Assembly: GCA_020725115.1 (NCBI GenBank)
Contig: DYFR01000018.1
Span: 11,579 to 75,578, forward strand
Source: Thiohalomonas denitrificans
Lineage (GTDB): Bacteria > Pseudomonadota > Gammaproteobacteria > Thiohalomonadales > Thiohalomonadaceae
Direction of reading: 5' to 3'
Length of the DNA: 64,000 nucleotides
Shown here: one piece after another, positions 1,184 to 56,753 of the stretch
Numbering within the stretch: the stretch's first letter is position 1
How the letters are laid out: each line of letters starts with the position of its first letter
Program-made: the position numbers and the translations under genes
The notes under the pieces: generated by a model
The model's database searches: none
What the model saw: the letters and a program-made list of their open reading frames with translations, nothing else
Told to the model about the DNA's origin: nothing

Positions 1184-2523
1184 AGGACGAGACGCTGCTG
1201 CCGCTGACGCTGCATGCGCCGCAGGACATCGTCGCCTGGCATCAGGGTCAGCCGATCCGTTGCGTGGAGTTCCTCGCCCAGGCTGCGGCGCTGGCGGCAA
1301 CGCTGCCGGCTGCCCGGCACGCGGTGAATCTGTGCGAGGATCGCTATCTGTTCATGCTGGCCTTTGCCGCCCTGCTGCTGCGTGGTCAGGTGAATCTGCT
1401 GCCGCCCAATCGCGCATCACACGTGGTGGAAGAGGTTGCCGCCGCATTTCCCGATAGTTACTGCCTGGTGGAGCGGCCGCAGGCCGATCTTGCGGTGGCA
1501 CAACATGCGGTGAATCTGGCACTGCCGTCGCTGGCCGTGGTGGCGCCGGCATTGATTCCGGCGGCGCAACTGGCGGCGATCATCTTCACCTCGGGCAGCA
1601 CCGGTACGCCGCGTCCCCACTGCAAATACTGGGGCGATCTGGTGCGTGGTGCAGCACGGGCGCGGGAGCGTTTTGTGCTGGAACACTATGTCGGCGGCAC
1701 CATTGTCGCTACCGTGCCGCCGCAGCACATGTACGGCCTCGAATCCACCATTCTGTACCCGTTGTTGAGCGGTCTTGCCGTGCATGGTGGGCGACCGTTC
1801 TTTCCGGAGGATCTGCGGCAGGCATTGAATGAGGTGGCTGTGCCACGCGTATTGGTGACCACGCCGGTGCACCTGCGCGCCTGCGTCGCTGCGGGCCTGT
1901 CGTGGCCGGATGTTTCCTTGATCATCAGCGCTACCGCGCCGCTGTCCGCCGAGCTGGCGGCAGCGGCGGAGCAAGCCTTCAGCTGCGAGGTGCGCGAGGT
2001 GTACGGTTGCACGGAAACCGGCGCCATTGCCAGCCGGCGCACGCTGGATGGCCCGCGCTGGTACCCCTATACCGGCGTGCAGCTGCACTGCAGCGAAGGG
2101 CGCTGCAAGGCTGTGGCCGATTTCCTGCACGAGCCGACGCCGTTGAACGACGTCATTGAACAGCATGCGGATGGTTTCATTCTGCTTGGTCGTGACAGTG
2201 ACATGGTGAACATCGGCGGCAAGCGCGCCTCGCTGGGCGATCTCAATCAACGCCTGTTGTCCATCCCGGGTGTGCAGGATGCGGCGCTGTTGCTGCTCGA
2301 TGCGGATAGCGAACGTGGTGGGCGTCTGTGCGCGCTGGTGGTGGCGCCGCAATTGACGGAGCAGACCATACTCGATGCCTTGCGGCTGCGTATGGACGAG
2401 GTGTTCCTGCCGCGACCGTTGTATCGTGTGGCGCGGCTGCCGCGTAACGACACCGGAAAACTTCCGCGTGGAGAACTGCTTGCCCTGTTGGAGCGGCTGA
2501 GGACGGGTGATGGACTACAGTGA
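1180..2523 (+). CDS. AMP-dependent synthetase/ligase (acyl/aryl-ACP ligase)
   Basis: AMP-binding motif IIFTSGSTGTPRPH. The GTG at 1180 forms a GTGA overlap with the upstream stop. Track ORF 967..2523 overlaps the previous gene in another frame. Confidence 0.85.
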   Translation: MKDETLLPLTLHAPQDIVAWHQGQPIRCVEFLAQAAALAATLPAARHAVNLCEDRYLFMLAFAALLLRGQVNLLPPNRASHVVEEVAAAFPDSYCLVERPQADLAVAQHAVNLALPSLAVVAPALIPAAQLAAIIFTSGSTGTPRPHCKYWGDLVRGAARARERFVLEHYVGGTIVATVPPQHMYGLESTILYPLLSGLAVHGGRPFFPEDLRQALNEVAVPRVLVTTPVHLRACVAAGLSWPDVSLIISATAPLSAELAAAAEQAFSCEVREVYGCTETGAIASRRTLDGPRWYPYTGVQLHCSEGRCKAVADFLHEPTPLNDVIEQHADGFILLGRDSDMVNIGGKRASLGDLNQRLLSIPGVQDAALLLLDADSERGGRLCALVVAPQLTEQTILDALRLRMDEVFLPRPLYRVARLPRNDTGKLPRGELLALLERLRTGDGLQ

Positions 2524-2809
2524 AGAGAGCATTATCGACGCCGCGCACCCGGCCTTGCCGGGGCATTTCCCGGGACAGCCCATCGTGCCCGGCGTTGTAT
2601 TGCTGGAACAGGTGTTGCGTGCAGCCACCCGCGCAGGCATCGATGCGATGGTGAATCTGCTGCCGCAGGTAAAGTTTAGTGAGCCGCTATTGCCGGCACA
2701 GCCGTTCACCATCCGCCTGCGCAGCGACCGCCCCGAGCGCTGGCGGTTCGAGTGTGTGCGCGAAGGGCGGCTGATTGCCTCCGGCCTGCTGCAAGCGGAA
2801 TCGACATGA
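2507..2809 (+). CDS. hotdog-fold dehydratase (FabA/FabZ-like)
   Basis: HFPGQPIVPGVVLLE motif. Small hotdog-sized protein inside the FAS-like cluster. Confidence 0.7.
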   Translation: MMDYSEESIIDAAHPALPGHFPGQPIVPGVVLLEQVLRAATRAGIDAMVNLLPQVKFSEPLLPAQPFTIRLRSDRPERWRFECVREGRLIASGLLQAEST

Positions 2810-3702
2810 CGGCGGCCCACTGGCAGACGCAGCACGAGCGTGGTTCCCCCTGGGCACTGCGGCTGATCCTGTGGATTGCATTGCGCCTCGGCCGCGCTGC
2901 GGCGCGCCTGCTGCTCTATCCCATCACGTTGTATTTCTTTCTCAACGGCCGCACCGCTCGCGAGGCGTCGTACCATTACCTGGCGCGCGTGTTTGGTCGC
3001 CCGCCGAGCCTGGGCGAGCGGCTGCGCCACATACACTGCTTTTCCGCCACCATCCTCGATCGGGTATTTTTTCTCAGCGGTCAGTTCGATCGTTTCGATG
3101 TGCGCGTGCATGGCGCCGAAGTGATTGAGACGCAGGCCGACAGTGGCCAGGGCTGTCTGCTGCTCAGTGCCCATATGGGCAGCTTCGATGCCCTGCGTGC
3201 ACTCGGCGTGGATCAACGCCAGCTGCCCATCAAGATACTGATGTTTCCCGATCACAACGGTTTCATCACGGCGCTGCTGCATACCTTGAATCCATCCCTG
3301 CTCGACACCGTGATCCCCCTCGGCGGCATCGACACCCTGTTACAGGTGCAGGAGGTGGTGGCGCGAGGCGAGATGGTCGGCATGCTGGGCGATCGGGTGG
3401 GCGAGGGCGGCAAGACCGTGCCGTGCCGCTTTCTCGGTGCCGAGGCCCCGTTTCCCGTCGGCGCGGCGCAACTGGCGGCGGTGCTGCATGTGCCGGTGAT
3501 CCTGGTGTTCGGCCTGTATCGCGGCGGCAATCGCTATGATCTGCACTTCGAGCGTTTCGATGCGACGCTGCCGCAAAATCGGCGTGAGCGCGAGGCGGCA
3601 CTGGGCGCGTGGACCCAGGCCTATGCGGCGCGGCTGGAGCATTATGTGCGCAGCGCGCCCTGCAACTGGTTCAATTTCTATGACTTCTGGCGGCAGGGTT
3701 AA
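2806..3702 (+). CDS. lysophospholipid/lipid A-type acyltransferase (LPLAT, LpxL/HtrB-like)
   Basis: HX4D motif (HMGSFD). ATGA overlap at 2806-2809. The track start 2752 overlaps the upstream gene. Confidence 0.75.
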   Translation: MTAAHWQTQHERGSPWALRLILWIALRLGRAAARLLLYPITLYFFLNGRTAREASYHYLARVFGRPPSLGERLRHIHCFSATILDRVFFLSGQFDRFDVRVHGAEVIETQADSGQGCLLLSAHMGSFDALRALGVDQRQLPIKILMFPDHNGFITALLHTLNPSLLDTVIPLGGIDTLLQVQEVVARGEMVGMLGDRVGEGGKTVPCRFLGAEAPFPVGAAQLAAVLHVPVILVFGLYRGGNRYDLHFERFDATLPQNRREREAALGAWTQAYAARLEHYVRSAPCNWFNFYDFWRQG

Positions 3703-4249
3703 GGTTCTCCTCGTACTGTGGGCCCTGTTGCCGCTGCCTGCAGCGGCACAGTGGGATGCCGCGCAGCTGCTGGCGGCGCTGGCCCGCGCCGTGCCCGAGC
3801 GTATCGCCTATAGCGAAACGCGCCGCCTGGCCTATCTTGATGTGCCCCTCACCACCAGCGGTGAACTGGAATTCCGCCCGCCCGACTGGTTGCGGCGCAG
3901 CGTGCAGGGCAGCGGTGAGAGCTATGTCATTGCCGGCGATGCGGTGCGCATCGAAGGCAGCGGCGGCGGCCGCGAGATTCCGCTCGACATGCACCCGGCG
4001 CTGCGCGCCTTTGCCGAATCCCTGCGTGCCACGCTGGCCGGTGATCTGCCGCGGCTGCAACGCTACTTCATCGTCGAACTGCAGGGCAGCGAACCGGCCT
4101 GGCGCCTGCAACTGCGGCCGCGTGACGCCAGTGTGGCCAGTGTGATCCAGTCCATCGAACTGAGCGGCGATGGTGCGACGCTGCGGCGCATCGAAACGCG
4201 CGAGGCCGGCGGCGACCTTACCGTCACCGAACTCAAGGACGGCCGATGA
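3680..4249 (+). CDS. LolA-like outer-membrane lipoprotein carrier domain protein
   Basis: Signal peptide KVLLVLWALLPLPAAAQW after the ATG at 3680. Size and context next to an MMPL exporter match APE clusters. Confidence 0.6.
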   Translation: MTSGGRVKVLLVLWALLPLPAAAQWDAAQLLAALARAVPERIAYSETRRLAYLDVPLTTSGELEFRPPDWLRRSVQGSGESYVIAGDAVRIEGSGGGREIPLDMHPALRAFAESLRATLAGDLPRLQRYFIVELQGSEPAWRLQLRPRDASVASVIQSIELSGDGATLRRIETREAGGDLTVTELKDGR

Positions 4250-6510
4250 AGGCGCGTCTGCCCTTGTGGCTGTGGCTCGCCCTGCTCGCTGTCGGCGCGT
4301 TCTACAGTCTCACGCGCGTCAGCGTGGTGAGCGACATGGCGGCGTTCCTGCCGCGCGGGGAGGGGCTGGAGCAGGCCCTGCTGCTGGATGCATTGCGCGA
4401 GGGACCGGCGGCACGCCTGATCATCGTTGCCCTCGGCGGCACCGAGGATACGGTGCGACTGGCTACAGCCAGTCGCGCAATGGCGGATCGCCTGCGCGAC
4501 GATACACGTTTTCTGCGTGTCGCCAACGGCCCGTCGGCCCTGCCGGCGGCAGAGCAGGAGCGCTGGTTCGCCCATCGCTATCTGCTGGCACCGCTGCCGC
4601 CCGAGGCATTTACCGCCGACGGCCTGCGCACGGAGATGGAGGCACGCCTGCGCGAGTTGTCGGCGCCGTTGCCGCCGCTGGACAAGGCGCGCCTGCCGGC
4701 CGATCCGCAGGCGGTATTCCGCCGTGTACTCGCCGCCTGGCAGGAGGGAAACACGCCGCCATTGCAGCACGGCGTATGGTTCGATGCCGCGGGGCGGCAG
4801 GCGCTGCTGTTGCTGGAGACCCGTGCCGGCGGCTTCGATCTCGATGCGCAGGAGGCGGCGCGCGCGGCGATCGTCGCCGCGGTGGAGGCGGGGGTGAGCG
4901 TTGAACTCAGCGGCCCCGGCATCATTGCCGCGGCCTCGCGCGACATCATCCGCAGCGAGGTGCAGTGGCTGAGCGCCCTGGCGACGCTGGCGCTGCTGGC
5001 GATCCTTCTCATCGCCTATCGCAGCCCACGCCTTTTGTTGTTGAGCGCCTTGCCGCTCGTGGCGGGTATCGTTGCCGCGGTGACGATGACCGGGCTGGTA
5101 TTCGGCAGCCTGCACGGCATCACCCTGGCCTTCGGCATCACCCTGCTCGGTGTCGCCATCGACTATCCGTTGCACCTGTTTTCCCATCTGCACGGCGGCG
5201 AGGCGCCGCGTCACACGCTGCGACGCATCTGGCCCACGTTGCGTCTCGGCGTGGCGAGCAGCGCCGTCGGTTATCTGGCCATGGCGGCCAGCCCCTTTGC
5301 CGGCCTGGCGCAACTGGCCGTGTTTACCGTGAGCGGCCTGGTGGCCGCCGCGCTCACGGTGCGCTGGGTGTTGCCGTTGCTGTTGCCGGCGGCGCCGGCG
5401 ATGCGGCTGCTGCCGTTCGCCGCCGGTGGCGCCGGACGCGGCCTGTGGACGCTGCCGCTGTTGCTGCTGCCGGCGCTGGCCTATCTGCTGCTGACGCCGC
5501 GGTCGCTGCTGGAGACCGAGCTGTCCGCCCTGAGTCCGGTGCCGCCGGCCTGGCGCGCGCTGGATGAGCGCCTGCGCCAGGCAGTGGGGGCGCCGGATGT
5601 GAGCCGTCTGTTGCTGTTGCAGGGGCGCAGCGCCGAGGAGGTGTTGCAGCGCAGCGAGGTGCTGGCCGCTGCGCTGGATGCGTTGCGTACCGACGGCATC
5701 ATCGGCGGCTATCGTCTGCCGTCGCAGTATCTGTCTGCGGCGACGACCCAAAGTGCGCGGGCTGCGGCTCTGCCCGATCCTGTCCCGCTGGTGGCGGCAG
5801 TGGAAACGGCACGGCAGGGTCTACCGTTCCGTGCCGGGCTGTTCGAGCCCTTTTTGCGCGACGTGGAGGCCAGTCGTGCACTGGCACCGCTGACGCCATC
5901 CGCTGTCGCCGATACCGTGGTCGGTACGCGACTGAGTGCGCTGTTGCGACCGCACGGCGACGGCTGGCTCGGCCTGGTACCGCTGTATGCCGTACAGGAC
6001 GAGGCGGCGCTGTTGCACTGGACCGCCCAGGCGGCACCCGCGGTGCAATATCTCAACCTGCGCCTGGCGGCGGATCAGATGGTGGAGCGCTTTCTGCGCG
6101 GGGCGGGGGGCTATCTGCTGGCCGGTGTGGTGCTGATCCTGCTGCTGCTCGGTGCGGGCCTGCGCGATGCGGCACGGCTGGCACGCGTGGTGTTGCCGGT
6201 GCTGACCGCGCTGGCACTGACCGCGGCGCTACTGCATGTCCTGGGTGCGCAGCTGTCGCTGTTCCATCTGGTGGCCCTGTTGCTGGTGCTGGGGCTGGGC
6301 ATCGACTACGGCCTGTTCTTCGCGCGCCCCGTCGCAGCGGAAGAATACGCCCGCACCGGCCACGCGGTAACCGTGTGCGCTATCTCCACCGCCAGTGTGT
6401 TTGGTATCCTCGCGCTCTCGCAGATACCGGTATTGCACGCCATCGGCAGCACCGTCGCCCTCGGGGTGGTGCTCAGTTACGGATTTGCCCGTTTGGTGCG
6501 GACAACATAG
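4246..6510 (+). CDS. MMPL/RND-superfamily membrane exporter
   Basis: 754 aa with two blocks of about six TM helices separated by soluble loops. ATGA overlap with the upstream gene. Confidence 0.8.
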   Translation: MKARLPLWLWLALLAVGAFYSLTRVSVVSDMAAFLPRGEGLEQALLLDALREGPAARLIIVALGGTEDTVRLATASRAMADRLRDDTRFLRVANGPSALPAAEQERWFAHRYLLAPLPPEAFTADGLRTEMEARLRELSAPLPPLDKARLPADPQAVFRRVLAAWQEGNTPPLQHGVWFDAAGRQALLLLETRAGGFDLDAQEAARAAIVAAVEAGVSVELSGPGIIAAASRDIIRSEVQWLSALATLALLAILLIAYRSPRLLLLSALPLVAGIVAAVTMTGLVFGSLHGITLAFGITLLGVAIDYPLHLFSHLHGGEAPRHTLRRIWPTLRLGVASSAVGYLAMAASPFAGLAQLAVFTVSGLVAAALTVRWVLPLLLPAAPAMRLLPFAAGGAGRGLWTLPLLLLPALAYLLLTPRSLLETELSALSPVPPAWRALDERLRQAVGAPDVSRLLLLQGRSAEEVLQRSEVLAAALDALRTDGIIGGYRLPSQYLSAATTQSARAAALPDPVPLVAAVETARQGLPFRAGLFEPFLRDVEASRALAPLTPSAVADTVVGTRLSALLRPHGDGWLGLVPLYAVQDEAALLHWTAQAAPAVQYLNLRLAADQMVERFLRGAGGYLLAGVVLILLLLGAGLRDAARLARVVLPVLTALALTAALLHVLGAQLSLFHLVALLLVLGLGIDYGLFFARPVAAEEYARTGHAVTVCAISTASVFGILALSQIPVLHAIGSTVALGVVLSYGFARLVRTT

Positions 6511-42737: not shown

Positions 42738-43298
42738 ATGAGCAAAATCATTCACCAGCAGGACATCATCGAGCGGCAGATCATCGCCATGGGCATCGCC
42801 CGCTTCGACATCGCCACCCGCAAGAAGGGCGGTTCGACCCTGACCCATGACGGTCTCTATCTCACCCAGCTCTGGGGCCTCATCGATCTGTTACGCGAAC
42901 AGAACAGTGCCGGCCAGGCCATACTGATCCGCCCCCACGGCGAACACGGCATGACCCTGCTCGGCGGGCTGAATACCGCCCGTCTCAATAAACTTAAAGT
43001 TGAAGGTTTTGAACCGGCCATCGTCGTGCAATACGGCAAGGATTTGTTCCAGGCCTGGCTCAAACACGACCGCAAACTGGATCAGGCCACCAGCGAAAAG
43101 GTGGCCAAGTGCCTGGCCGAACGCGCCGGCGTGGATGCCTCCACCACCCACTGGGACAGCTACGGCTACCTGGCCAATTTCCTCATCCCCGCCTGGCTTC
43201 AGGGCGAGGAGCAGGAGGCCTGGCTGGTGGAAGACAGCGGCAAGGTCTACAGCGCCGCGGCTGAGCTGTTGTCGAAATATTGCTTGCTCGCTGATTGA
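42738..43298 (+). CDS. RepB-primase-domain-like protein with degenerate catalytic motifs
   Basis: The pattern ILIRPHGEHGMTLLGGL...FQAWLK...GYLANF resembles the RSF1010 RepB' primase core. GGL stands where DDL is expected, and there is no TSPxNxQ motif. Confidence 0.45.
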   Translation: MSKIIHQQDIIERQIIAMGIARFDIATRKKGGSTLTHDGLYLTQLWGLIDLLREQNSAGQAILIRPHGEHGMTLLGGLNTARLNKLKVEGFEPAIVVQYGKDLFQAWLKHDRKLDQATSEKVAKCLAERAGVDASTTHWDSYGYLANFLIPAWLQGEEQEAWLVEDSGKVYSAAAELLSKYCLLAD

Positions 43299-50489: not shown

Positions 50490-50789
50490 TCCCTGGTCTC
50501 ATTGTGCGGAACAGTGCACCAGCATGGGGCGGCGGGCACACGCCAGCAGCGGACATTGCCCGATGCCTCAAGGCGCCTGTAGTCCAATTCCTACAGACAG
50601 GCATAAGGCATACTGGTAGTGTCTGTGCTAATGGGTAACGGTTAGGTGAGAATGTGCCGATAACCTATTGTGGCCGTTGATAAAAACGCCGCCCCCATGG
50701 CAGGCATGCAAATGTGATAGGCCGCAGCGTTGCTAAAAGTATTAATGCGGCGTCAGTCTAAATAACTGTTATGTGTCAAAGGAGTAAGC

Positions 50790-51149
50790 ATGAAGCACAG
50801 CCTCATATTGGTTGCCTTAAATCAAGAGCAAATTAGTAAAGCAAAAGAAGTCAATGGAAACAGAAAGCAGATCACGCATGCATTGATCTGCGGGCCGTTT
50901 GGGCAGATATTTGGGACAGAAAAGCAATGCATGAAATACTATTCTGCATGGATTGAGGTATTTCCTCTGTTATTCGATAAAGGAATTGAAACTGATTCCC
51001 ATGAGATATCGGACTACAGAAGCACCTTTAATTTGGTTAATAAGCTAATTTCGGCTCACGATCCATTGGAATCAACTAATGACACCCTTATGCAGGGTCG
51101 TCGAAATCAAAAAGAAAAGAAAAGTATTTTTTCCTGGTTGTTCGGATAG
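50790..51149 (+). CDS. hypothetical protein (cassette 1, ORF A)
   Basis: GGAG SD 5 nt before the ATG, which lies 21 nt after the cassette boundary. 119 aa with no recognisable motif. Confidence 0.6.
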   Translation: MKHSLILVALNQEQISKAKEVNGNRKQITHALICGPFGQIFGTEKQCMKYYSAWIEVFPLLFDKGIETDSHEISDYRSTFNLVNKLISAHDPLESTNDTLMQGRRNQKEKKSIFSWLFG

Positions 51150-51163
51150 ATACAAGCATTGAA

Positions 51164-51212
51164 CCATTTGCCATTTGCCATTTGCCATTTGCCATTTGCC
51201 ATTTGCCATTTG
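51164..51212. repeat. perfect heptanucleotide tandem repeat (CCATTTG)x7
   Basis: Read directly. Seven identical units, intergenic, ending 48 bp upstream of the lipoprotein ATG. Confidence 0.97.
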
Positions 51213-51260
51213 CTAAGCGATTTTTGCGGAAATGGCATGGAACAAAATTAAGGATTAGTG

Positions 51261-52343
51261 ATGCGATACACGATAATTATTTTGGTTGCACTACTTGCTG
51301 GGTGTGAAACGGTTGGCTCTCTTGTTAAGCCACAAAAAAGTGCGGATGAACGGTTTGCTGAAAGGGTTAAGCAGTGGTCAGATTCGCAAATTCAAACGAT
51401 GCTGGCTGATTTTGATTCTGGCTTGCCATTGGTGAGCGGCGATAAAGTTACGTTTATACCCTCAGATAAAGCGCCAGAAGTTTATAAAAAAACGGATTCT
51501 GAACTGCTAAGGCTGAGAGCGGGTCTGGCGAGTAACGAGAAAAATATGGGTGAGTTGAAAAGTATTCATGATGTTAGTCGCGCTACATCTTCTGACTTAG
51601 ACAAGACCCGATCTTGGTTTGAGTCGGAGCTTTCGAAATATTCGAATGATTTTCATGCGGCTGTAGTGCAGCAAAGTACTGCGGGACGAATGAGTTTTGA
51701 TGGTTCTGCATACACAACGGAAAACTTGCTGAGTTATTGCGAGTCACATGGCATACGGCAGGGACACTGCAAGTCAGAGCCGTACAATAGGGACGGCAAT
51801 GCTATTGCCGTAATTATTCTCTCTAAGAGTTTTATGCGAAATCACCCGGAGTATCGCGACTATTTTGAGTGGGTATCTCGCGAAAAAGAATCATTTGATA
51901 AGATTGCTGATGATGCTGCAAAACTAGGCACTGAATACGAATCAAAAATGTTTTTGAAGAAAGCGTCATCAAGTGGGTGCAAAAATATGTCTCGCATAAA
52001 CTTTATAGACAACCTTCCACTTGCCGCTCAGGTTGGTTACTCCAACTTTCGTCCCGAAAAAACATCGGTATATGATTTGGGTCACTTCAAAGTGCTGCAA
52101 ACACAATCGGATGGTGTTCTGTTGTCAACCACATACCCAGGCAGCCATAACGTTCCGCTTATATACGCCTACACGCAAAAGAAGTATACGGACGGGCATA
52201 CGTTCCAACCAGGAGAGCAACTTGCTTGTGTTGCAGGCGCGAAAGAGTATGTCTCAATTCTTGGGGTAAAAAAGCGTGTAATTTCATTCCGCACTATAAA
52301 CGACAACAATAAGTACTATTTCTTTTTGAAAACACAAGAATAA
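51261..52343 (+). CDS. lipoprotein, unknown function (cassette 1, ORF B)
   Basis: MRYTIIILVALLAGC lipobox and an AAGGA SD. 360 aa with no recognisable domain. Confidence 0.7.
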   Translation: MRYTIIILVALLAGCETVGSLVKPQKSADERFAERVKQWSDSQIQTMLADFDSGLPLVSGDKVTFIPSDKAPEVYKKTDSELLRLRAGLASNEKNMGELKSIHDVSRATSSDLDKTRSWFESELSKYSNDFHAAVVQQSTAGRMSFDGSAYTTENLLSYCESHGIRQGHCKSEPYNRDGNAIAVIILSKSFMRNHPEYRDYFEWVSREKESFDKIADDAAKLGTEYESKMFLKKASSSGCKNMSRINFIDNLPLAAQVGYSNFRPEKTSVYDLGHFKVLQTQSDGVLLSTTYPGSHNVPLIYAYTQKKYTDGHTFQPGEQLACVAGAKEYVSILGVKKRVISFRTINDNNKYYFFLKTQE

Positions 52344-52858
52344 TGTGTGCGGGAGGCTCGGTGGGAAATCTTAATCTTGATGACGCACTTGGATTCTTCC
52401 GGGAGTTAGTAGATCCTAATTTCTGTGAGTTTTACTGGGACTATCAATCTGACGAAGAGTGTGGAAGAGACAAGCTGGTCCGAGTATTTAGAAAGATGGT
52501 TAATCTTTGCCTGACGCTCAATCATCAGGCAGACAAGGTGGCCCACAAGCTTCAGTATAAATGTGCTCGCGCGCTAATAGTAGAGGTTACCAAACATTAT
52601 CCATCTGAAGGGGCCGCGCTAAATGCAGTTAGGGAATTCTCAAACGACATTAAACACAAATCCAAGCTTGATCAAAATTATACAACAAGAAAAAGAGGGC
52701 TCAATGACCAGCCGCAAGCTGGCTCAGACTTACCTGAGTGGTACTTTGTTTCAAAAAATGGAGAAAGAATTGCTGTGTGTGATGGCACTGTCGATGCCTA
52801 CCTATTTTGGGGAAAATGGTTTGCTGGAGAGCGTGAACTTTTACAAAAAAACACATAA
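52343..52858 (+). CDS. hypothetical cytoplasmic protein (cassette 1, ORF C)
   Basis: The start overlaps the ORF B stop (TAATG). 171 aa. The stop codon lies inside the attC inverse core. Confidence 0.65.
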   Translation: MCAGGSVGNLNLDDALGFFRELVDPNFCEFYWDYQSDEECGRDKLVRVFRKMVNLCLTLNHQADKVAHKLQYKCARALIVEVTKHYPSEGAALNAVREFSNDIKHKSKLDQNYTTRKRGLNDQPQAGSDLPEWYFVSKNGERIAVCDGTVDAYLFWGKWFAGERELLQKNT

Positions 52859-52921
52859 CACGATGCTTCACCCGACCAAAAACCGCTTTGCGGTTTTTGT
52901 CGGGTGAGCTAGGCGTTAGGT
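52853..52921 (+). other. attC site a
   Basis: ACATAAC-acgat-GCTTCACCCGAC...GTCGGGTGAGC-taggc-GTTAGGT. Long imperfect hairpin with two bulged bases. Confidence 0.75.
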
Positions 52922-52940
52922 CTTGCAACAAGGAGTTGTC

Positions 52941-53333
52941 ATGAAAATCAATTCTCTGTCCCCATGCATCACGACCACCAAGGTCGAGGAGTCACGCGAT
53001 TTCTACGTGAAGCACTTTGGTGCAAAGGTCACCTTCGATTGTGGATGGTACGTCAATCTTGAATTTGAAGGAGGCGCTTCCGTTCAGTTCATGGCGCCGC
53101 AAAACGACCAGCCCGCTTGCAATCCGACAGGGCTGATGTACAACTTCAGCGTTTCGGATGTCGATGCCGAGTATCAGTCACTCACCGCATCCGGTCTGGT
53201 TGCCATCATGCCCATTGAAGACCACCCTTGGGGGGATCGTGGTTTTGCCGTTCAAGACCCGAACGGCATCGTTCTATACGTCTATTCTGAGCGTGAGCCA
53301 AGCCCTGAGTTCAAGCAATATTACAAGTCCTGA
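52941..53333 (+). CDS. VOC/glyoxalase-bleomycin-resistance family protein (cassette 2)
   Basis: AGGAG SD. About 130 aa with the paired beta-alpha-beta-beta-beta pattern typical of glyoxalase-fold proteins (weak, by eye). Confidence 0.7.
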   Translation: MKINSLSPCITTTKVEESRDFYVKHFGAKVTFDCGWYVNLEFEGGASVQFMAPQNDQPACNPTGLMYNFSVSDVDAEYQSLTASGLVAIMPIEDHPWGDRGFAVQDPNGIVLYVYSEREPSPEFKQYYKS

Positions 53334-53337
53334 CGCC

Positions 53338-53697
53338 ATGTCCGCCGACCGCATCTCGAAACTGCTCGAAGACATTAGACTTCTCAATCCAGATCGCTTC
53401 GAGCTTGTGCAAGAACTGAGGGAAATCATCCTTGGTTTGGATTCCTCCGTGTCCGAGGAAGTGAAATACGGCGGGTTCTTGTTTTCCGCTGACCAGCCGT
53501 TTTGTGGTGTTTTCTCCTACGCAAAGCACATTTCGTTGGAGTTCGGTGCAGGCGCATCACTTCCAGACAAGTTCAACGTACTGGAAGGTAAGGGAAACAT
53601 ACGCAGGCACATAAAGCTGTTATCGGCGCAGGACATTTCGGAGAAGCACGTTCGTGAGTATCTCGTTTTGGCCCTCAAGGCGTCGGCTAAGCCATGA
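53338..53697 (+). CDS. DUF1801 (YdhG-like) domain protein (cassette 2)
   Basis: 119 aa with the pattern EEVKYGGFLFS...HISLEFGAGA typical of this family. Confidence 0.65.
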   Translation: MSADRISKLLEDIRLLNPDRFELVQELREIILGLDSSVSEEVKYGGFLFSADQPFCGVFSYAKHISLEFGAGASLPDKFNVLEGKGNIRRHIKLLSAQDISEKHVREYLVLALKASAKP

Positions 53698-53698
53698 G

Positions 53699-53773
53699 AC
53701 CTAACCACAGCGTCAACTCGGACGCCCGACTCCGCTGCGCTCCGTCGGGCGCCGGTTACGCTGGCCGTTAGCT
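53699..53773 (+). other. attC site b
   Basis: ACCTAAC-cacag-CGTCAACTCGGACGCCCGAC...GTCGGGCGCCGGTTACG-ctggcc-GTTAGCT. Confidence 0.75.
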
Positions 53774-53789
53774 TAAAAGGAATGGTGGG

Positions 53790-54296
53790 ATGCCATTATC
53801 CGAGATTAGAACTTATCTTATTGAACTTACGAGATGCAGATATAAAGGTCTGTATGAAGAGTTAGAAATAAGATGTGTCGTTATCATTTCGGTGCTGTCA
53901 TTTACATCGTATAAAACAATATATGAGGTATTTGTCGTGAGTTTCGGTTTTTATGTGAATATCGTTCTTCTTGTAACTTCGATTTGGCTTTTATCCATTC
54001 TCTTAGGTATCTCTTTCTTTGAGAAGAAAAAGAAGAAATACATTATTGAATCAGATGGCTTCAAATGGCGAGTAACTAGATATATAAATAACAGCCTTTC
54101 GGTAGATGAAACCCCTTTGTGTGGTAAAGACGAGGTTCCTTTAGTGCATGATGGACAGGTACTTTATTGCCCGAAGTGTAATGAAGTGAAAATGAAATCC
54201 GGTGATCTGCTTAACTTCTTACATAGAGTAAACTCAAAAGCCGAGGCAGATAGGGATAGTTCTATCAAAGTTCCTAAACGTTATATCCCAGCATAG
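53790..54296 (+). CDS. hypothetical membrane protein with C-terminal CxxxC...CPKC zinc-ribbon-like motif (cassette 3)
   Basis: Two hydrophobic helices, a K-rich stop-transfer segment (EKKKKKY), then CGKDE...YCPKC. Confidence 0.6.
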   Translation: MPLSEIRTYLIELTRCRYKGLYEELEIRCVVIISVLSFTSYKTIYEVFVVSFGFYVNIVLLVTSIWLLSILLGISFFEKKKKKYIIESDGFKWRVTRYINNSLSVDETPLCGKDEVPLVHDGQVLYCPKCNEVKMKSGDLLNFLHRVNSKAEADRDSSIKVPKRYIPA

Positions 54297-54298
54297 AA

Positions 54299-54358
54299 AG
54301 CTAACAAATAGATCAAGCTGACGCATAAAAGACTGCGCAGCTTATCAAATCGTTAGCT
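54299..54358 (+). other. attC site c
   Basis: AGCTAAC-aaata-GATCAAGCTGACGCA...TGCGCAGCTTATC-aaatc-GTTAGCT. Two bulged bases. R'' and R' are perfectly complementary. Confidence 0.8.
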
Positions 54359-54372
54359 GCTGAAGGGAAGTC

Positions 54373-54789
54373 ATGAGCATAGAATTTAAAATCAACGCTC
54401 CGGTATCCACCGATCAATTCATCGGCTTGCTTCGTAAATCAACACTTGGAGAGCGCAGACCCATTGAAGATCGTGAGTGCATGGAAGGTATGGTTAAAAA
54501 TAGCAATCTGATGGTTACTGCTTGGCGTGGCGAGGAACTGATAGGCATAGCGCGCTCAATGACGGATTTTCATTATGCCTGTTATCTCTCTGACCTGGCG
54601 GTTCATATGAAATATCAGAGAAGTGGTATAGGAAAGAAACTGCAAGTAAAAACTCAGGAGCAATTAGGCCCGAACTGCAAGTTGATTCTGGTTGCAGCCC
54701 CTACCGCCAACTCATATTACGAACATATTGGTTTTACGAACAATCAAAGGTGTTGGGTTCTTGAACGTGATAAAAATATCAGCAGCTAA
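54373..54789 (+). CDS. GNAT-family N-acetyltransferase (cassette 4)
   Basis: Acetyl-CoA motif QRSGIGKKL. 138 aa. The stop codon lies inside the attC inverse core. Confidence 0.85.
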   Translation: MSIEFKINAPVSTDQFIGLLRKSTLGERRPIEDRECMEGMVKNSNLMVTAWRGEELIGIARSMTDFHYACYLSDLAVHMKYQRSGIGKKLQVKTQEQLGPNCKLILVAAPTANSYYEHIGFTNNQRCWVLERDKNISS

Positions 54790-54846
54790 CGAATAAGGTT
54801 AGATTGTGAGAGCGAAGCGAACCACAATCTGAACCGATTGTTGGAC
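54784..54846 (+). other. attC site d
   Basis: AGCTAAC-gaata-AGGTTAGATTGTG...CACAATCTGAACC-gatt-GTTGGAC. Confidence 0.7.
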
Positions 54847-55056: not shown

Positions 55057-55815
55057 TTACATAACCGATGCACCTGCTAAGGCATCGAGCGGGAAACGTC
55101 TCGGAAGCAATACAGGGAGCCGTGTACGCACGATCTTCATTTCGCCACCACAGCAGCGGCAGGTTAGCGGGGGTCGTTTCCTTAACCACGCCGTTGAGCG
55201 AGCCGGATCGAGATTGAGCAGATAGTGCAGCAACTGGATCATCCGTTTGCTGTTGGGATGCAGAAAGCCGAAGTTACGGGCGCGTCGAAATCCCTTCGGC
55301 AAAACATGTTGTAAGAGCAACCAAAGGAAATCCTCGCCGTCCAGGGTGCGCATCTCGCGCTCTTTTGTCTTGCTGTCTTGATAGTGAAAGCTGACCTTGC
55401 CATTGCCACAGGCCACAATATCCTTCTCCTGAAGCACACCCCGATAAAGGTAACGACCGAGATAGACCAGCGCCTTGTCGCCATTGCCGACGTGCTTGCA
55501 GTCCACGACCCAATTTTCGGGATAGTGCTTTGGCAATGCCAGTCCTGCCTGGGTGATCTCATCAAGCATTTTTGCCCGAAACACCTTGGCCAACGCCTTG
55601 TGATTGAAGAGGTAAGGCTTTTTCTTCGTCGTCCTGGTACGCCACAGCCGGCGCTTGGCATCAATGGCGGCAGCGGGGATCGCCAGATGCACATGGGGAT
55701 GAAAATCCAGACGTCGGGAATGGGTATGTAACACCGCAATGGCACCGGGCGTGCCCCGAAGCTGCCGGTCATTGAGACTGAAGGCATGCACCGTCTCCCA
55801 GGCGCACTGCATCAT
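55057..55815 (-). pseudogene. IS91-family (HUH/Y2 rolling-circle) transposase, N-terminally truncated
   Basis: HUH region HTHSRRLDFHPHVH, tyrosine motif YLGRYLYR and C-terminal CRCCGG. The ~130-150 aa N-terminal zinc-binding part is missing. An in-frame stop lies 6 codons upstream of the first Met. Confidence 0.8.
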
Positions 55816-55831: not shown

Positions 55832-55879
55832 GGTCAGAACACAGATATCGCTAATATTAGTAGAATATGTGTTCTGACC
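55832..55879. repeat. 12-bp perfect inverted repeat at the truncation point of the transposase
   Basis: GGTCAGAACACA, 24 AT-rich nt, TGTGTTCTGACC. Confidence 0.55.
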
Positions 55880-55970
55880 GATCCACCGGACGCTGCGCGA
55901 TAAAGCCGCGCAGCGCCGGTGACATCCATGTTCGTGTATTACTTGGTCCATGCATTCCCATCCATTGACA

Positions 55971-56753
55971 ATGCCAAGATTACTCATATCCATTCTTCTT
56001 TTCTGTTTTTCCGTTTTCGCTCGTGCAGAAGATGCGGATATAGCTGTTCTGTTCAGCAAAGTGGGGGTTTCAGGAACCATTTTGATCGAATCATCAAAGA
56101 CTGGTCAGCGTTTTATTCACAACGACGCCCGTTCGAAGCAGGCTTTCGCCGCCGCGTCCACATTTAAGGTGCTTAACACCCTTATAAGTCTTGAGGAAGG
56201 CGTGATAGCTGGAGCCGATTCGACCATTCGATGGGATGGTACTCTTTACGAGCTCGCCGATTGGAATCGCGATCAGACCTTGGAAACTGCATTCAAGGTC
56301 AGTTGCGTGTGGTGCTATCAGGAGTTGGCGCAGAGGGTTGGGGCTGCAAAATACCCTGCTTATATCCGCAGTTCGCACTATGGTGAGTTGCGTGAACCGT
56401 TTGATGGAACGCAATTCTGGTTGGACGGTTCGCTAACTATCAGCGCGGAGCAGCAGGTGGCTTTTCTCAAACAGTTGGTCACGGGCCGCTTGCCATTTCG
56501 TGCGAGTAGTTACGCTACTCTGAAGTCCATCATGCTTACAGATAAAACGCCGTACTATCGGTTGTACGCCAAGACTGGCTGGGCGACTCGTAATGCACCG
56601 GCCGTAGGCTGGTATGCCGGTTATGTGGAAGTCGCCGAAGACATATGGCTGTTCGCACTGAATATTGAAACCCGTAGTGCAGCCGACTTGCCTCTCCGCA
56701 AACAGACTACCCTTGAGGCATTTCGGGTCAAAGGTATTCTGCCGGCGAATTGA
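55971..56753 (+). CDS. class D (OXA-type) beta-lactamase
   Basis: Signal peptide [19 protein letters not shown]. Motifs STFK, SCV (SxV), KTG and FWLDGSL. Confidence 0.85.

Follow-up and report, generated by a model that had tools for sequence, protein, structure and literature searches.

When an integron cassette carries three genes, do these genes make up a system, or are they separate cassettes that have become fused? The question is raised by a 2147-bp cassette in a 64,000-nucleotide stretch of Thiohalomonas denitrificans DNA (assembly GCA_020725115.1, contig DYFR01000018.1, positions 11,579 to 75,578), which at its full length we call the window. An original prediction, made from the window alone, had taken this cassette for a mobile, self-contained three-component module and had linked it to anti-phage defence and toxin-antitoxin modules. 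Our analysis indicates that the unit is probably a fused integron cassette, in which three formerly independent single-gene cassettes were joined by the loss of attC sites, and that the products of its three open reading frames (ORFs), A, B and C, appear to be autonomous and not parts of a dedicated three-part machine. The features of the unit are the following.

50768-50774, plus strand: left core-type site GTTATGT, with the crossover between G50768 and T50769
50769-52915, plus strand: the integron cassette, probably composite (fused), 2147 bp, 42.5% GC
50790-51149, plus strand: ORF A, 119 amino acids (aa), with an AGGAG Shine-Dalgarno sequence
51150-51260, plus strand: spacer between A and B, without an attC fold, containing (CCATTTG)x7 at 51164-51212
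51261-52343, plus strand: ORF B, a predicted 360-aa lipoprotein with the lipobox LLAGC (Cys15)
52340-52346, plus strand: putative relic of a core site, ATAATGT (once GTTATGT), where the C cassette used to begin; it holds the B stop codon TAA (52341-52343)
52361-52858, plus strand: ORF C, 165 aa, with start codon GTG and the Shine-Dalgarno sequence GGGAGG at 52351-52356; its stop codon lies inside R''
52853-52921, plus strand: attC of the composite cassette, which is C's own attC; R'' ACATAAC at 52853-52859, R' GTTAGGT at 52915-52921, crossover after G52915

Positions 50769-52915 are a single integron cassette and one recombination unit. It had been delimited from its TTATGT start and ACATAAC inverse core, and the coordinates, the attC fold and the homology breakpoints all agree with those limits. 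Folding of the attC bottom strand gives -22.2 kcal/mol, compared with -8.2 +/- 2.3 kcal/mol for shuffled sequences (z = -6.1), and none of 200 shuffles equalled it; the same holds for the three attC sites downstream, at 53699-53773, 54299-54358 and 54784-54846 (z = -3.8, -3.9 and -4.1; 0 of 200 shuffles each). In all four cassettes of the array the TTRRRY start complements the cassette's own R'' (TTATGT/ACATAAC, TTAGGT/ACCTAAC, TTAGCT/AGCTAAC and TTAGCT/AGCTAAC), as expected from a circular cassette intermediate. DNA homology to five metagenomic contigs (L003-L007, 84-92% identity) opens precisely on G50768 of the core site, and homology to a further contig, L019 (95%), stops at 52919. Since the rule of the circular intermediate, the attC fold and the homology breaks at the crossover points coincide, we take these boundaries to be true recombination junctions. 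The regex-plus-fold procedure by which attC sites were sought is noisy, and was relied on solely alongside inspection by eye and homology breakpoints.

Three co-directional ORFs lie within this unit, as had been predicted, and no attC was found between them: the gap between B and C is merely 17 nucleotides (nt), and the A-B spacer folds worse than its shuffles (z = +1.7). The claim that the cassette is mobile is borne out by its relatives. In L003-L005 the block is preceded by the attC of a DUF4087 cassette, as part of a long array, and in L019 it is followed by a cassette different from that in the window; the neighbours of the block thus differ on both sides between the window and other arrays. 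Because these neighbours differ and homology breaks at the crossover points, the block has been transferred whole between arrays.

Between B and C there is what appears, from the sequence, to be a clear relic of a former cassette boundary. Window positions 52340-52363 read ATAATGTGTGCGGGAGGCTCGGTG, and the corresponding stretch of L013, a cassette that carries C alone, reads GTTATGTGTGCAGGAGGCCCGGTG; the B/C junction would accordingly consist of a core site that has decayed and, after it, the 5' untranslated region and Shine-Dalgarno sequence of C itself. The relic core was recognised by visual comparison of the junction with solo C cassettes at their 5' ends. Such cassettes occur in at least seven loci (L013, L014, L015, L016, L021, L022/23 and L024), where a GTTATGTGT-type core stands directly 5' of the Shine-Dalgarno sequence and GTG start, and an ACATAAC-type attC lies downstream wherever the sequence is intact. 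In the majority of these loci that upstream core forms part of an attC. In L015 it is part of attI: there, in Marinobacter nauticus, C is the first cassette and its neighbour is a gene with 52% identity to IntI1. None of the solo loci holds A or B within 3-6 kb of C. Upstream of C in L013 no attC can be recognised. This last cassette matches window positions 52343-52917 at 88% DNA identity, attC included, with no A or B beside it. The attC that closes the three-gene unit is therefore that of C itself. An identical B/C junction is shared by the window, L019, L006 and L007, and this indicates that fusion happened once.

The same evidence bears on the converse history, in which the three-gene unit is ancestral, an operon captured once as a cassette, and the solo forms of A, B and C are secondary. 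A TAATGT core variant also opens the solo C cassette L024, and the direction of the base change is not decisive. This history nonetheless seems to us barely credible: solo C occurs in a wide range of divergent lineages, at 64-91% identity, and of taxa (Marinobacter, Desulfuromonadaceae and several metagenomes), whereas the fused form is one shallow clade sharing a single junction. The attC of the fused unit belongs, moreover, to C, and B bears different attC sites of its own in two other cassettes (L009 and L010).

The junction also changes how C itself is read. C had been given 171 aa, beginning at an ATG (52343) that overlaps the B stop codon, and translational coupling to B through TAATG had been proposed. 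The conserved start is instead the GTG at 52361, which gives 165 aa, and 19 of the 26 clusters of the C family (64-91% identity in a word-indexed search) are 164-166 aa long and start with MGNL or VGNL. The ATG at 52343 falls in another frame in L007 and in the majority of solo C cassettes, and the proposed translational coupling is therefore neither conserved nor supported. C has no signal peptide and many invariant polar residues; it is predicted to be cytoplasmic and looks enzyme-like. It is not Cys-rich, as had been supposed, with just two Cys invariant in the family. A HEPN-like identity was considered for C and rejected, the spacing being R-x7-H and not R-x4-6-H. C also occurs outside integrons, in L018 (Marinobacter pelagius), near a 1053-aa protein (2008-5169) that by eye has a SIR2-like N-terminus, the remainder resembling a P-loop NTPase with helical repeats; if this reading by eye holds, the setting would look like a defence island.

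The prediction for ORF A, a protein of 119 aa with its own Shine-Dalgarno sequence, holds. The A family comprises at least 80 clusters (word-indexed search), in Vibrio, Aeromonas, Marinobacter, Pseudomonas and others. On the Vibrio parahaemolyticus plasmid pVPTW011 and the Aliivibrio wodanis plasmid pAWOD72 (L032 and L033), A is a solo cassette between attC sites resembling Vibrio cholerae repeats, and further A homologues precede unrelated genes. The AlphaFold2 model of A, with a predicted local distance difference test score (pLDDT) of 89.3, shows a compact alpha/beta fold and, after it, a long C-terminal helix, and A is predicted on this model to be a small soluble alpha/beta protein. A ribbon-helix-helix fold, guessed at from the sequence, is excluded by the beta-alpha-beta-beta-alpha-beta-alpha topology of the AlphaFold2 model. 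Compared with the PDB by Foldseek, the A model gave no structural match (best E = 2.5).

The spacer that follows A opens with bases weakly similar to the R''-L'' part of the attC found behind solo A cassettes. Its heptamer CCATTTG, which is positioned 5' of the B ribosome-binding site, is present in seven copies in the window and in one in L003-L005; there is none at that position in L006, which shows CGATTTG there, or in L007. The intergenic repeat is thus variable among relatives, as had been proposed, and the seven-copy microsatellite is specific to the window genome.

B is a predicted lipoprotein, in line with the original reading of its LAGC lipobox. Its N-terminus, MRYTIIILVALLAGC, is a signal peptide ending in a lipobox that matches [LVI][ASTVI][GAS]C, and Cys15 does not vary among the nine closest B sequences. 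Four more Cys (C160, C170, C240 and C323) are invariant in the same nine, which would fit an exported, disulfide-bonded protein. The family is rare, with 9 clusters among 5.8 billion sequences in a word-indexed search and 52 representatives among 1.84 billion sequences in an exhaustive profile search. The AlphaFold2 model of B, built on a 55-sequence alignment (pLDDT 92.5; predicted template modelling score 0.84), consists of a flexible, putatively lipidated N-terminus, a long helical domain (residues ~28-237) and a C-terminal beta-barrel (residues ~265-350) resembling the oligonucleotide/oligosaccharide-binding (OB) fold; this barrel is the best-conserved part of the family. Foldseek returned nothing at E <= 1e-3 for the model against the PDB and BFVD. 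The barrel drew weak, local OB-fold-like hits to a superantigen OB domain, SSB, S1 and a phage protein labelled CcmE, and Pfam gave no match over 55 members of the B family. From its location, its fold elements and the analogy with lipoproteins of other mobile elements, one may tentatively suggest an envelope-anchored protein of the binding or exclusion type.

B, too, occurs without the other two genes. In L009 it stands alone between two attC sites, and in a Psychromonas contig (L001/2) and in L012 it lies outside any integron. In L010 a cassette made of B and another small gene, X, closes with its own ACATAAC attC, without C. X is a 114-aa membrane protein unrelated to A, encoded directly 5' of B at L010 118-462 and also at L008 2-193; the two X proteins are 65% identical. 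One may therefore ask whether A and B, or more generally a small upstream gene and B, are a functional pair to which C was fused later as a hitch-hiker. A-B recurs in the window lineage and in a divergent contig (L011), X-B in L008 and L010, and in none of these is there an attC between the small gene and B. We nevertheless find such a pair distinctly improbable, given that B is a solo cassette in L009, that neither A nor X is present at the non-integron loci L001 and L012, that A and X are unrelated (a soluble alpha/beta protein versus a membrane protein) and that A is mostly solo, with at least 80 clusters as against 9 to 52 for B.

Whether all three genes belong together can be judged from how often they meet. 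With profile hidden Markov models, A or B is found beside C only in the window lineage and in L011, and the same is true of A and B together. Neither A nor B lies within 3-6 kb of C in at least 15 distinct C loci, and sampled A loci are likewise partnerless; because the families are so unequal in size (at least 80 clusters for A, 26 for C and 9 for B, or 52 representatives of B by profile), most A and C genes have no possible B partner. The original prediction had itself named a failure of the three genes to co-occur, or their separation by attC sites, as evidence against a module. Co-occurrence is in fact confined to close relatives sharing one B/C junction, plus the divergent L011, and in other genomes each of the three is a single-gene cassette with its own attC (C in L013-L016 and L021-L024, B in L009, A in L032 and L033). 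The idea of a self-contained three-component module is not supported by this comparison.

Several points weigh against the view that the unit is a fusion of independent cassettes. No convincing relic of an attC was found at the A/B junction, where there is the weak resemblance alone, and the interior of the unit was scanned by a crude regex-plus-fold search, which gave a single chance R''/R' pair in the B coding sequence, no covariance-model scan (IntegronFinder) having been made. L011 holds the three genes in the order C-A-B, with 72%, 74% and 52% identity to the window proteins (~52-54% for B) and with decayed sites between the genes, and this adjacency is more than random cassette adjacency would give. 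Among C loci of less than 85% C identity, A and B are the sole recurrent non-transposase neighbours. In four of its five integron-type contexts B is preceded by a small partner gene, A in two and X in two, with no attC in the gap. The functions suggested for A, B and C derive from models and sequence features.

The recurrence of A and B as neighbours of C would be expected if the three genes did work together as a module, such as a defence or stress system spanning envelope and cytoplasm, whose parts circulate separately and whose juxtaposition was selected. Such a module would also fit the two orders in which C adjoins A-B (A-B-C in the window, C-A-B in L011), in B lineages that are not obviously sister, and the intact state of all three genes in the window, L019 and L007. 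We consider it clearly unlikely, however, in view of the partnerless C and A loci. In addition, the nearest relative of the window C outside its lineage, among cassettes with a readable context, is the solo cassette L013 (91%); B is disrupted in L003-L005 by an apparent insertion; and PADLOC, Pfam and NCBIfam yield no hits. The cassettes moreover share an extended core (ACACATAAC / GTTATGTGT), which points to a common cassette pool and so makes repeated adjacency less improbable, and fused cassettes persist without any need for selection, since the integrase cannot separate them.

A looser form of association, in which A, B and C (or A-B with C) interact as an envelope-associated, modular system while each part also circulates by itself, is in our judgement unlikely as well, though it deserves to be spelled out. 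According to this idea, the C-A-B arrangement of L011 and the recurrence of a small gene followed by B would reflect selection for co-transfer, and the fusion would be a case of evolution building an operon inside an integron. The system would then be mechanistically new, as the predicted folds of A and B, modelled with confidence, are without a match in the PDB.

Library searches agree that the three ORFs contain no known motif, as first reported. A, B and C gave sub-threshold noise alone against Pfam, NCBIfam, PADLOC and PHROGs, 0 families at E <= 1 in PADLOC-DB v2, and noise or coiled-coil matches against PDB sequence profiles. With 0 PADLOC hits and nothing that ties the genes to toxin-antitoxin families, the proposed link to defence or toxin-antitoxin modules finds no support. 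A check by Foldseek on AlphaFold models had also been proposed; for A and B it returned confident models and no structural match.

We thus return to the fused cassette as the probable explanation. The attC sites behind A and behind B would have been lost, leaving one 5' boundary and the attC of C. As only one attC is left, an integrase acting in trans could excise or insert the three genes only jointly, if the integron mechanism and published fused cassettes are a guide. Expression would probably depend on read-through or on internal signals, because the array lies downstream of a co-directional two-component regulator operon. A scan for promoters and terminators gave counts no higher than in shuffled sequence.

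The surroundings of the unit consist of the following features.

50490-50767: left flank, non-coding, without an attC fold (folding z = -0.3 to -0.5)
50769-54840, plus strand: array with four attC sites, made up of the probable fused cassette and three further cassettes
52916-53767, plus strand: cassette 2, glyoxalase plus DUF1801
53768-54352, plus strand: cassette 3, a 168-aa protein that contains a hydrophobic stretch as well as a CxxC pair
54353-54840, plus strand: cassette 4, GNAT acetyltransferase

The array stands out in composition, with a stretch at ~50.6-55 kb dropping to 36-53% GC in a window of 60% mean GC. An assembly chimera is unlikely, since the window is identical to contig DYHA01000004.1 of GCA_020724385.1 and the same neighbourhood was seen in four contigs bearing protein A. 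Upstream of the array, and all on the cassette strand, are genes for a hybrid sensor kinase and for two response regulators, one of which is an EAL response regulator. Neither an attC nor intI was found upstream of the cassette by folding of the flank and by tblastn. A common attI could not be demonstrated for the window, L006, L007 and L013, whose upstream spacers align over a short TAAT...GTTATGT alone. In the whole 64-kb window, tblastn with an IntI1 query that picks out the L015 integrase at 3e-101 gave nothing at E < 1. In place of the intI and attI that adjoin the array of a complete integron, response regulators lie upstream here. Because four attC sites lie between 52853 and 54846 and no intI was found in the 64 kb, the four-cassette array is an attC site cluster that has no integron integrase (CALIN), as defined in PMC4889954.

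Some further observations concern the other cassettes and their neighbours. Cassette 2 also holds two genes, for a protein of the glyoxalase/bleomycin-resistance fold (52941-53333) and a DUF1801 protein (53338-53697), separated by 4 nt with no attC between, and is perhaps a further fused or two-gene cassette. The GNAT cassette's attC (54784-54846) closely resembles a degenerate attC behind an A homologue on an unrelated metagenomic contig (L034, ~4380-4445), which suggests that the two sites were drawn from a common cassette pool. Directly past the last cassette is a 5'-truncated gene for an IS91-family (Y2) transposase (55057-55815, minus strand), and a palindrome of 24+24 nt lies at 55832-55879, just past the 5' end of that gene. 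IS91-like genes are also found near the C cassettes of L022 and L023. One may speculate that rolling-circle transposition brought the integrase-less array to its present site. After the truncated transposase gene, beyond the array, comes a gene for a class D (OXA-type) beta-lactamase (55950-56753, plus strand). Among NCBIfam models it scores best with the OXA-198-like carbapenemase family, where its 360 bits fall short of the family cut-off of 515; it clears the generic class D model (260 bits versus a cut-off of 250), and has ~50% GC compared with 65% for the genes after it. Far upstream, at 42738-43298 (plus strand), between an anthranilate-synthase-like gene and the sensor kinase, a small ORF with an RepB_primase N-terminal domain may be a mobile-element remnant.

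If fusion is the correct explanation, the locus is a clean natural case of how integrons build operon-like units by attC loss between adjoining cassettes, two successive losses having fixed three genes as one mobile block that later spread to other arrays. It would also mean that unusual cassette size by itself does not count as evidence for a multi-gene system, which is relevant to the mining of arrays for defence systems. A, B and C enlarge the pool of uncharacterised cassette proteins, and the rare B and the small A have confident models with no structural relative. Nothing in the analysis points to a new class of system.

Three kinds of known system invite comparison. The gcu and phage-defence cassettes (bioRxiv 10.1101/2024.07.02.601719) are likewise cassette-borne, uncharacterised and bigger than a typical cassette. 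In contrast to them, the window unit has no similarity to any PADLOC model, and its size would come from the fusion of three ordinary cassettes (~0.4, 1.2 and 0.57 kb) and not from a large multi-gene system. CALINs, which are common (PMC4889954), require two or more attC sites with no intI nearby in the definition of the IntegronFinder paper, and the window array has four. In both, most cassettes are of unassigned function and an insertion sequence element adjoins, with no essential difference; the term describes the context of the array, however, and not the fused cassette itself. Loss of attC gives rise to fused cassettes, which excise as a single unit (PMC4670013). A close parallel would be gcu14-blaGES-1/aacA4 from a class 1 integron of Pseudomonas aeruginosa (PMC4670013), where the coding regions are intact, as here, and which by analogy resembles the window unit as a permanent operon-like array moved as one cassette. 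The window unit differs in joining three cassettes and not two, in encoding proteins without assigned function in place of resistance genes, and in lying in a chromosomal array with no integrase found in 64 kb. A fused cassette inside a CALIN is thus a known phenomenon, of which the window provides a fresh example.

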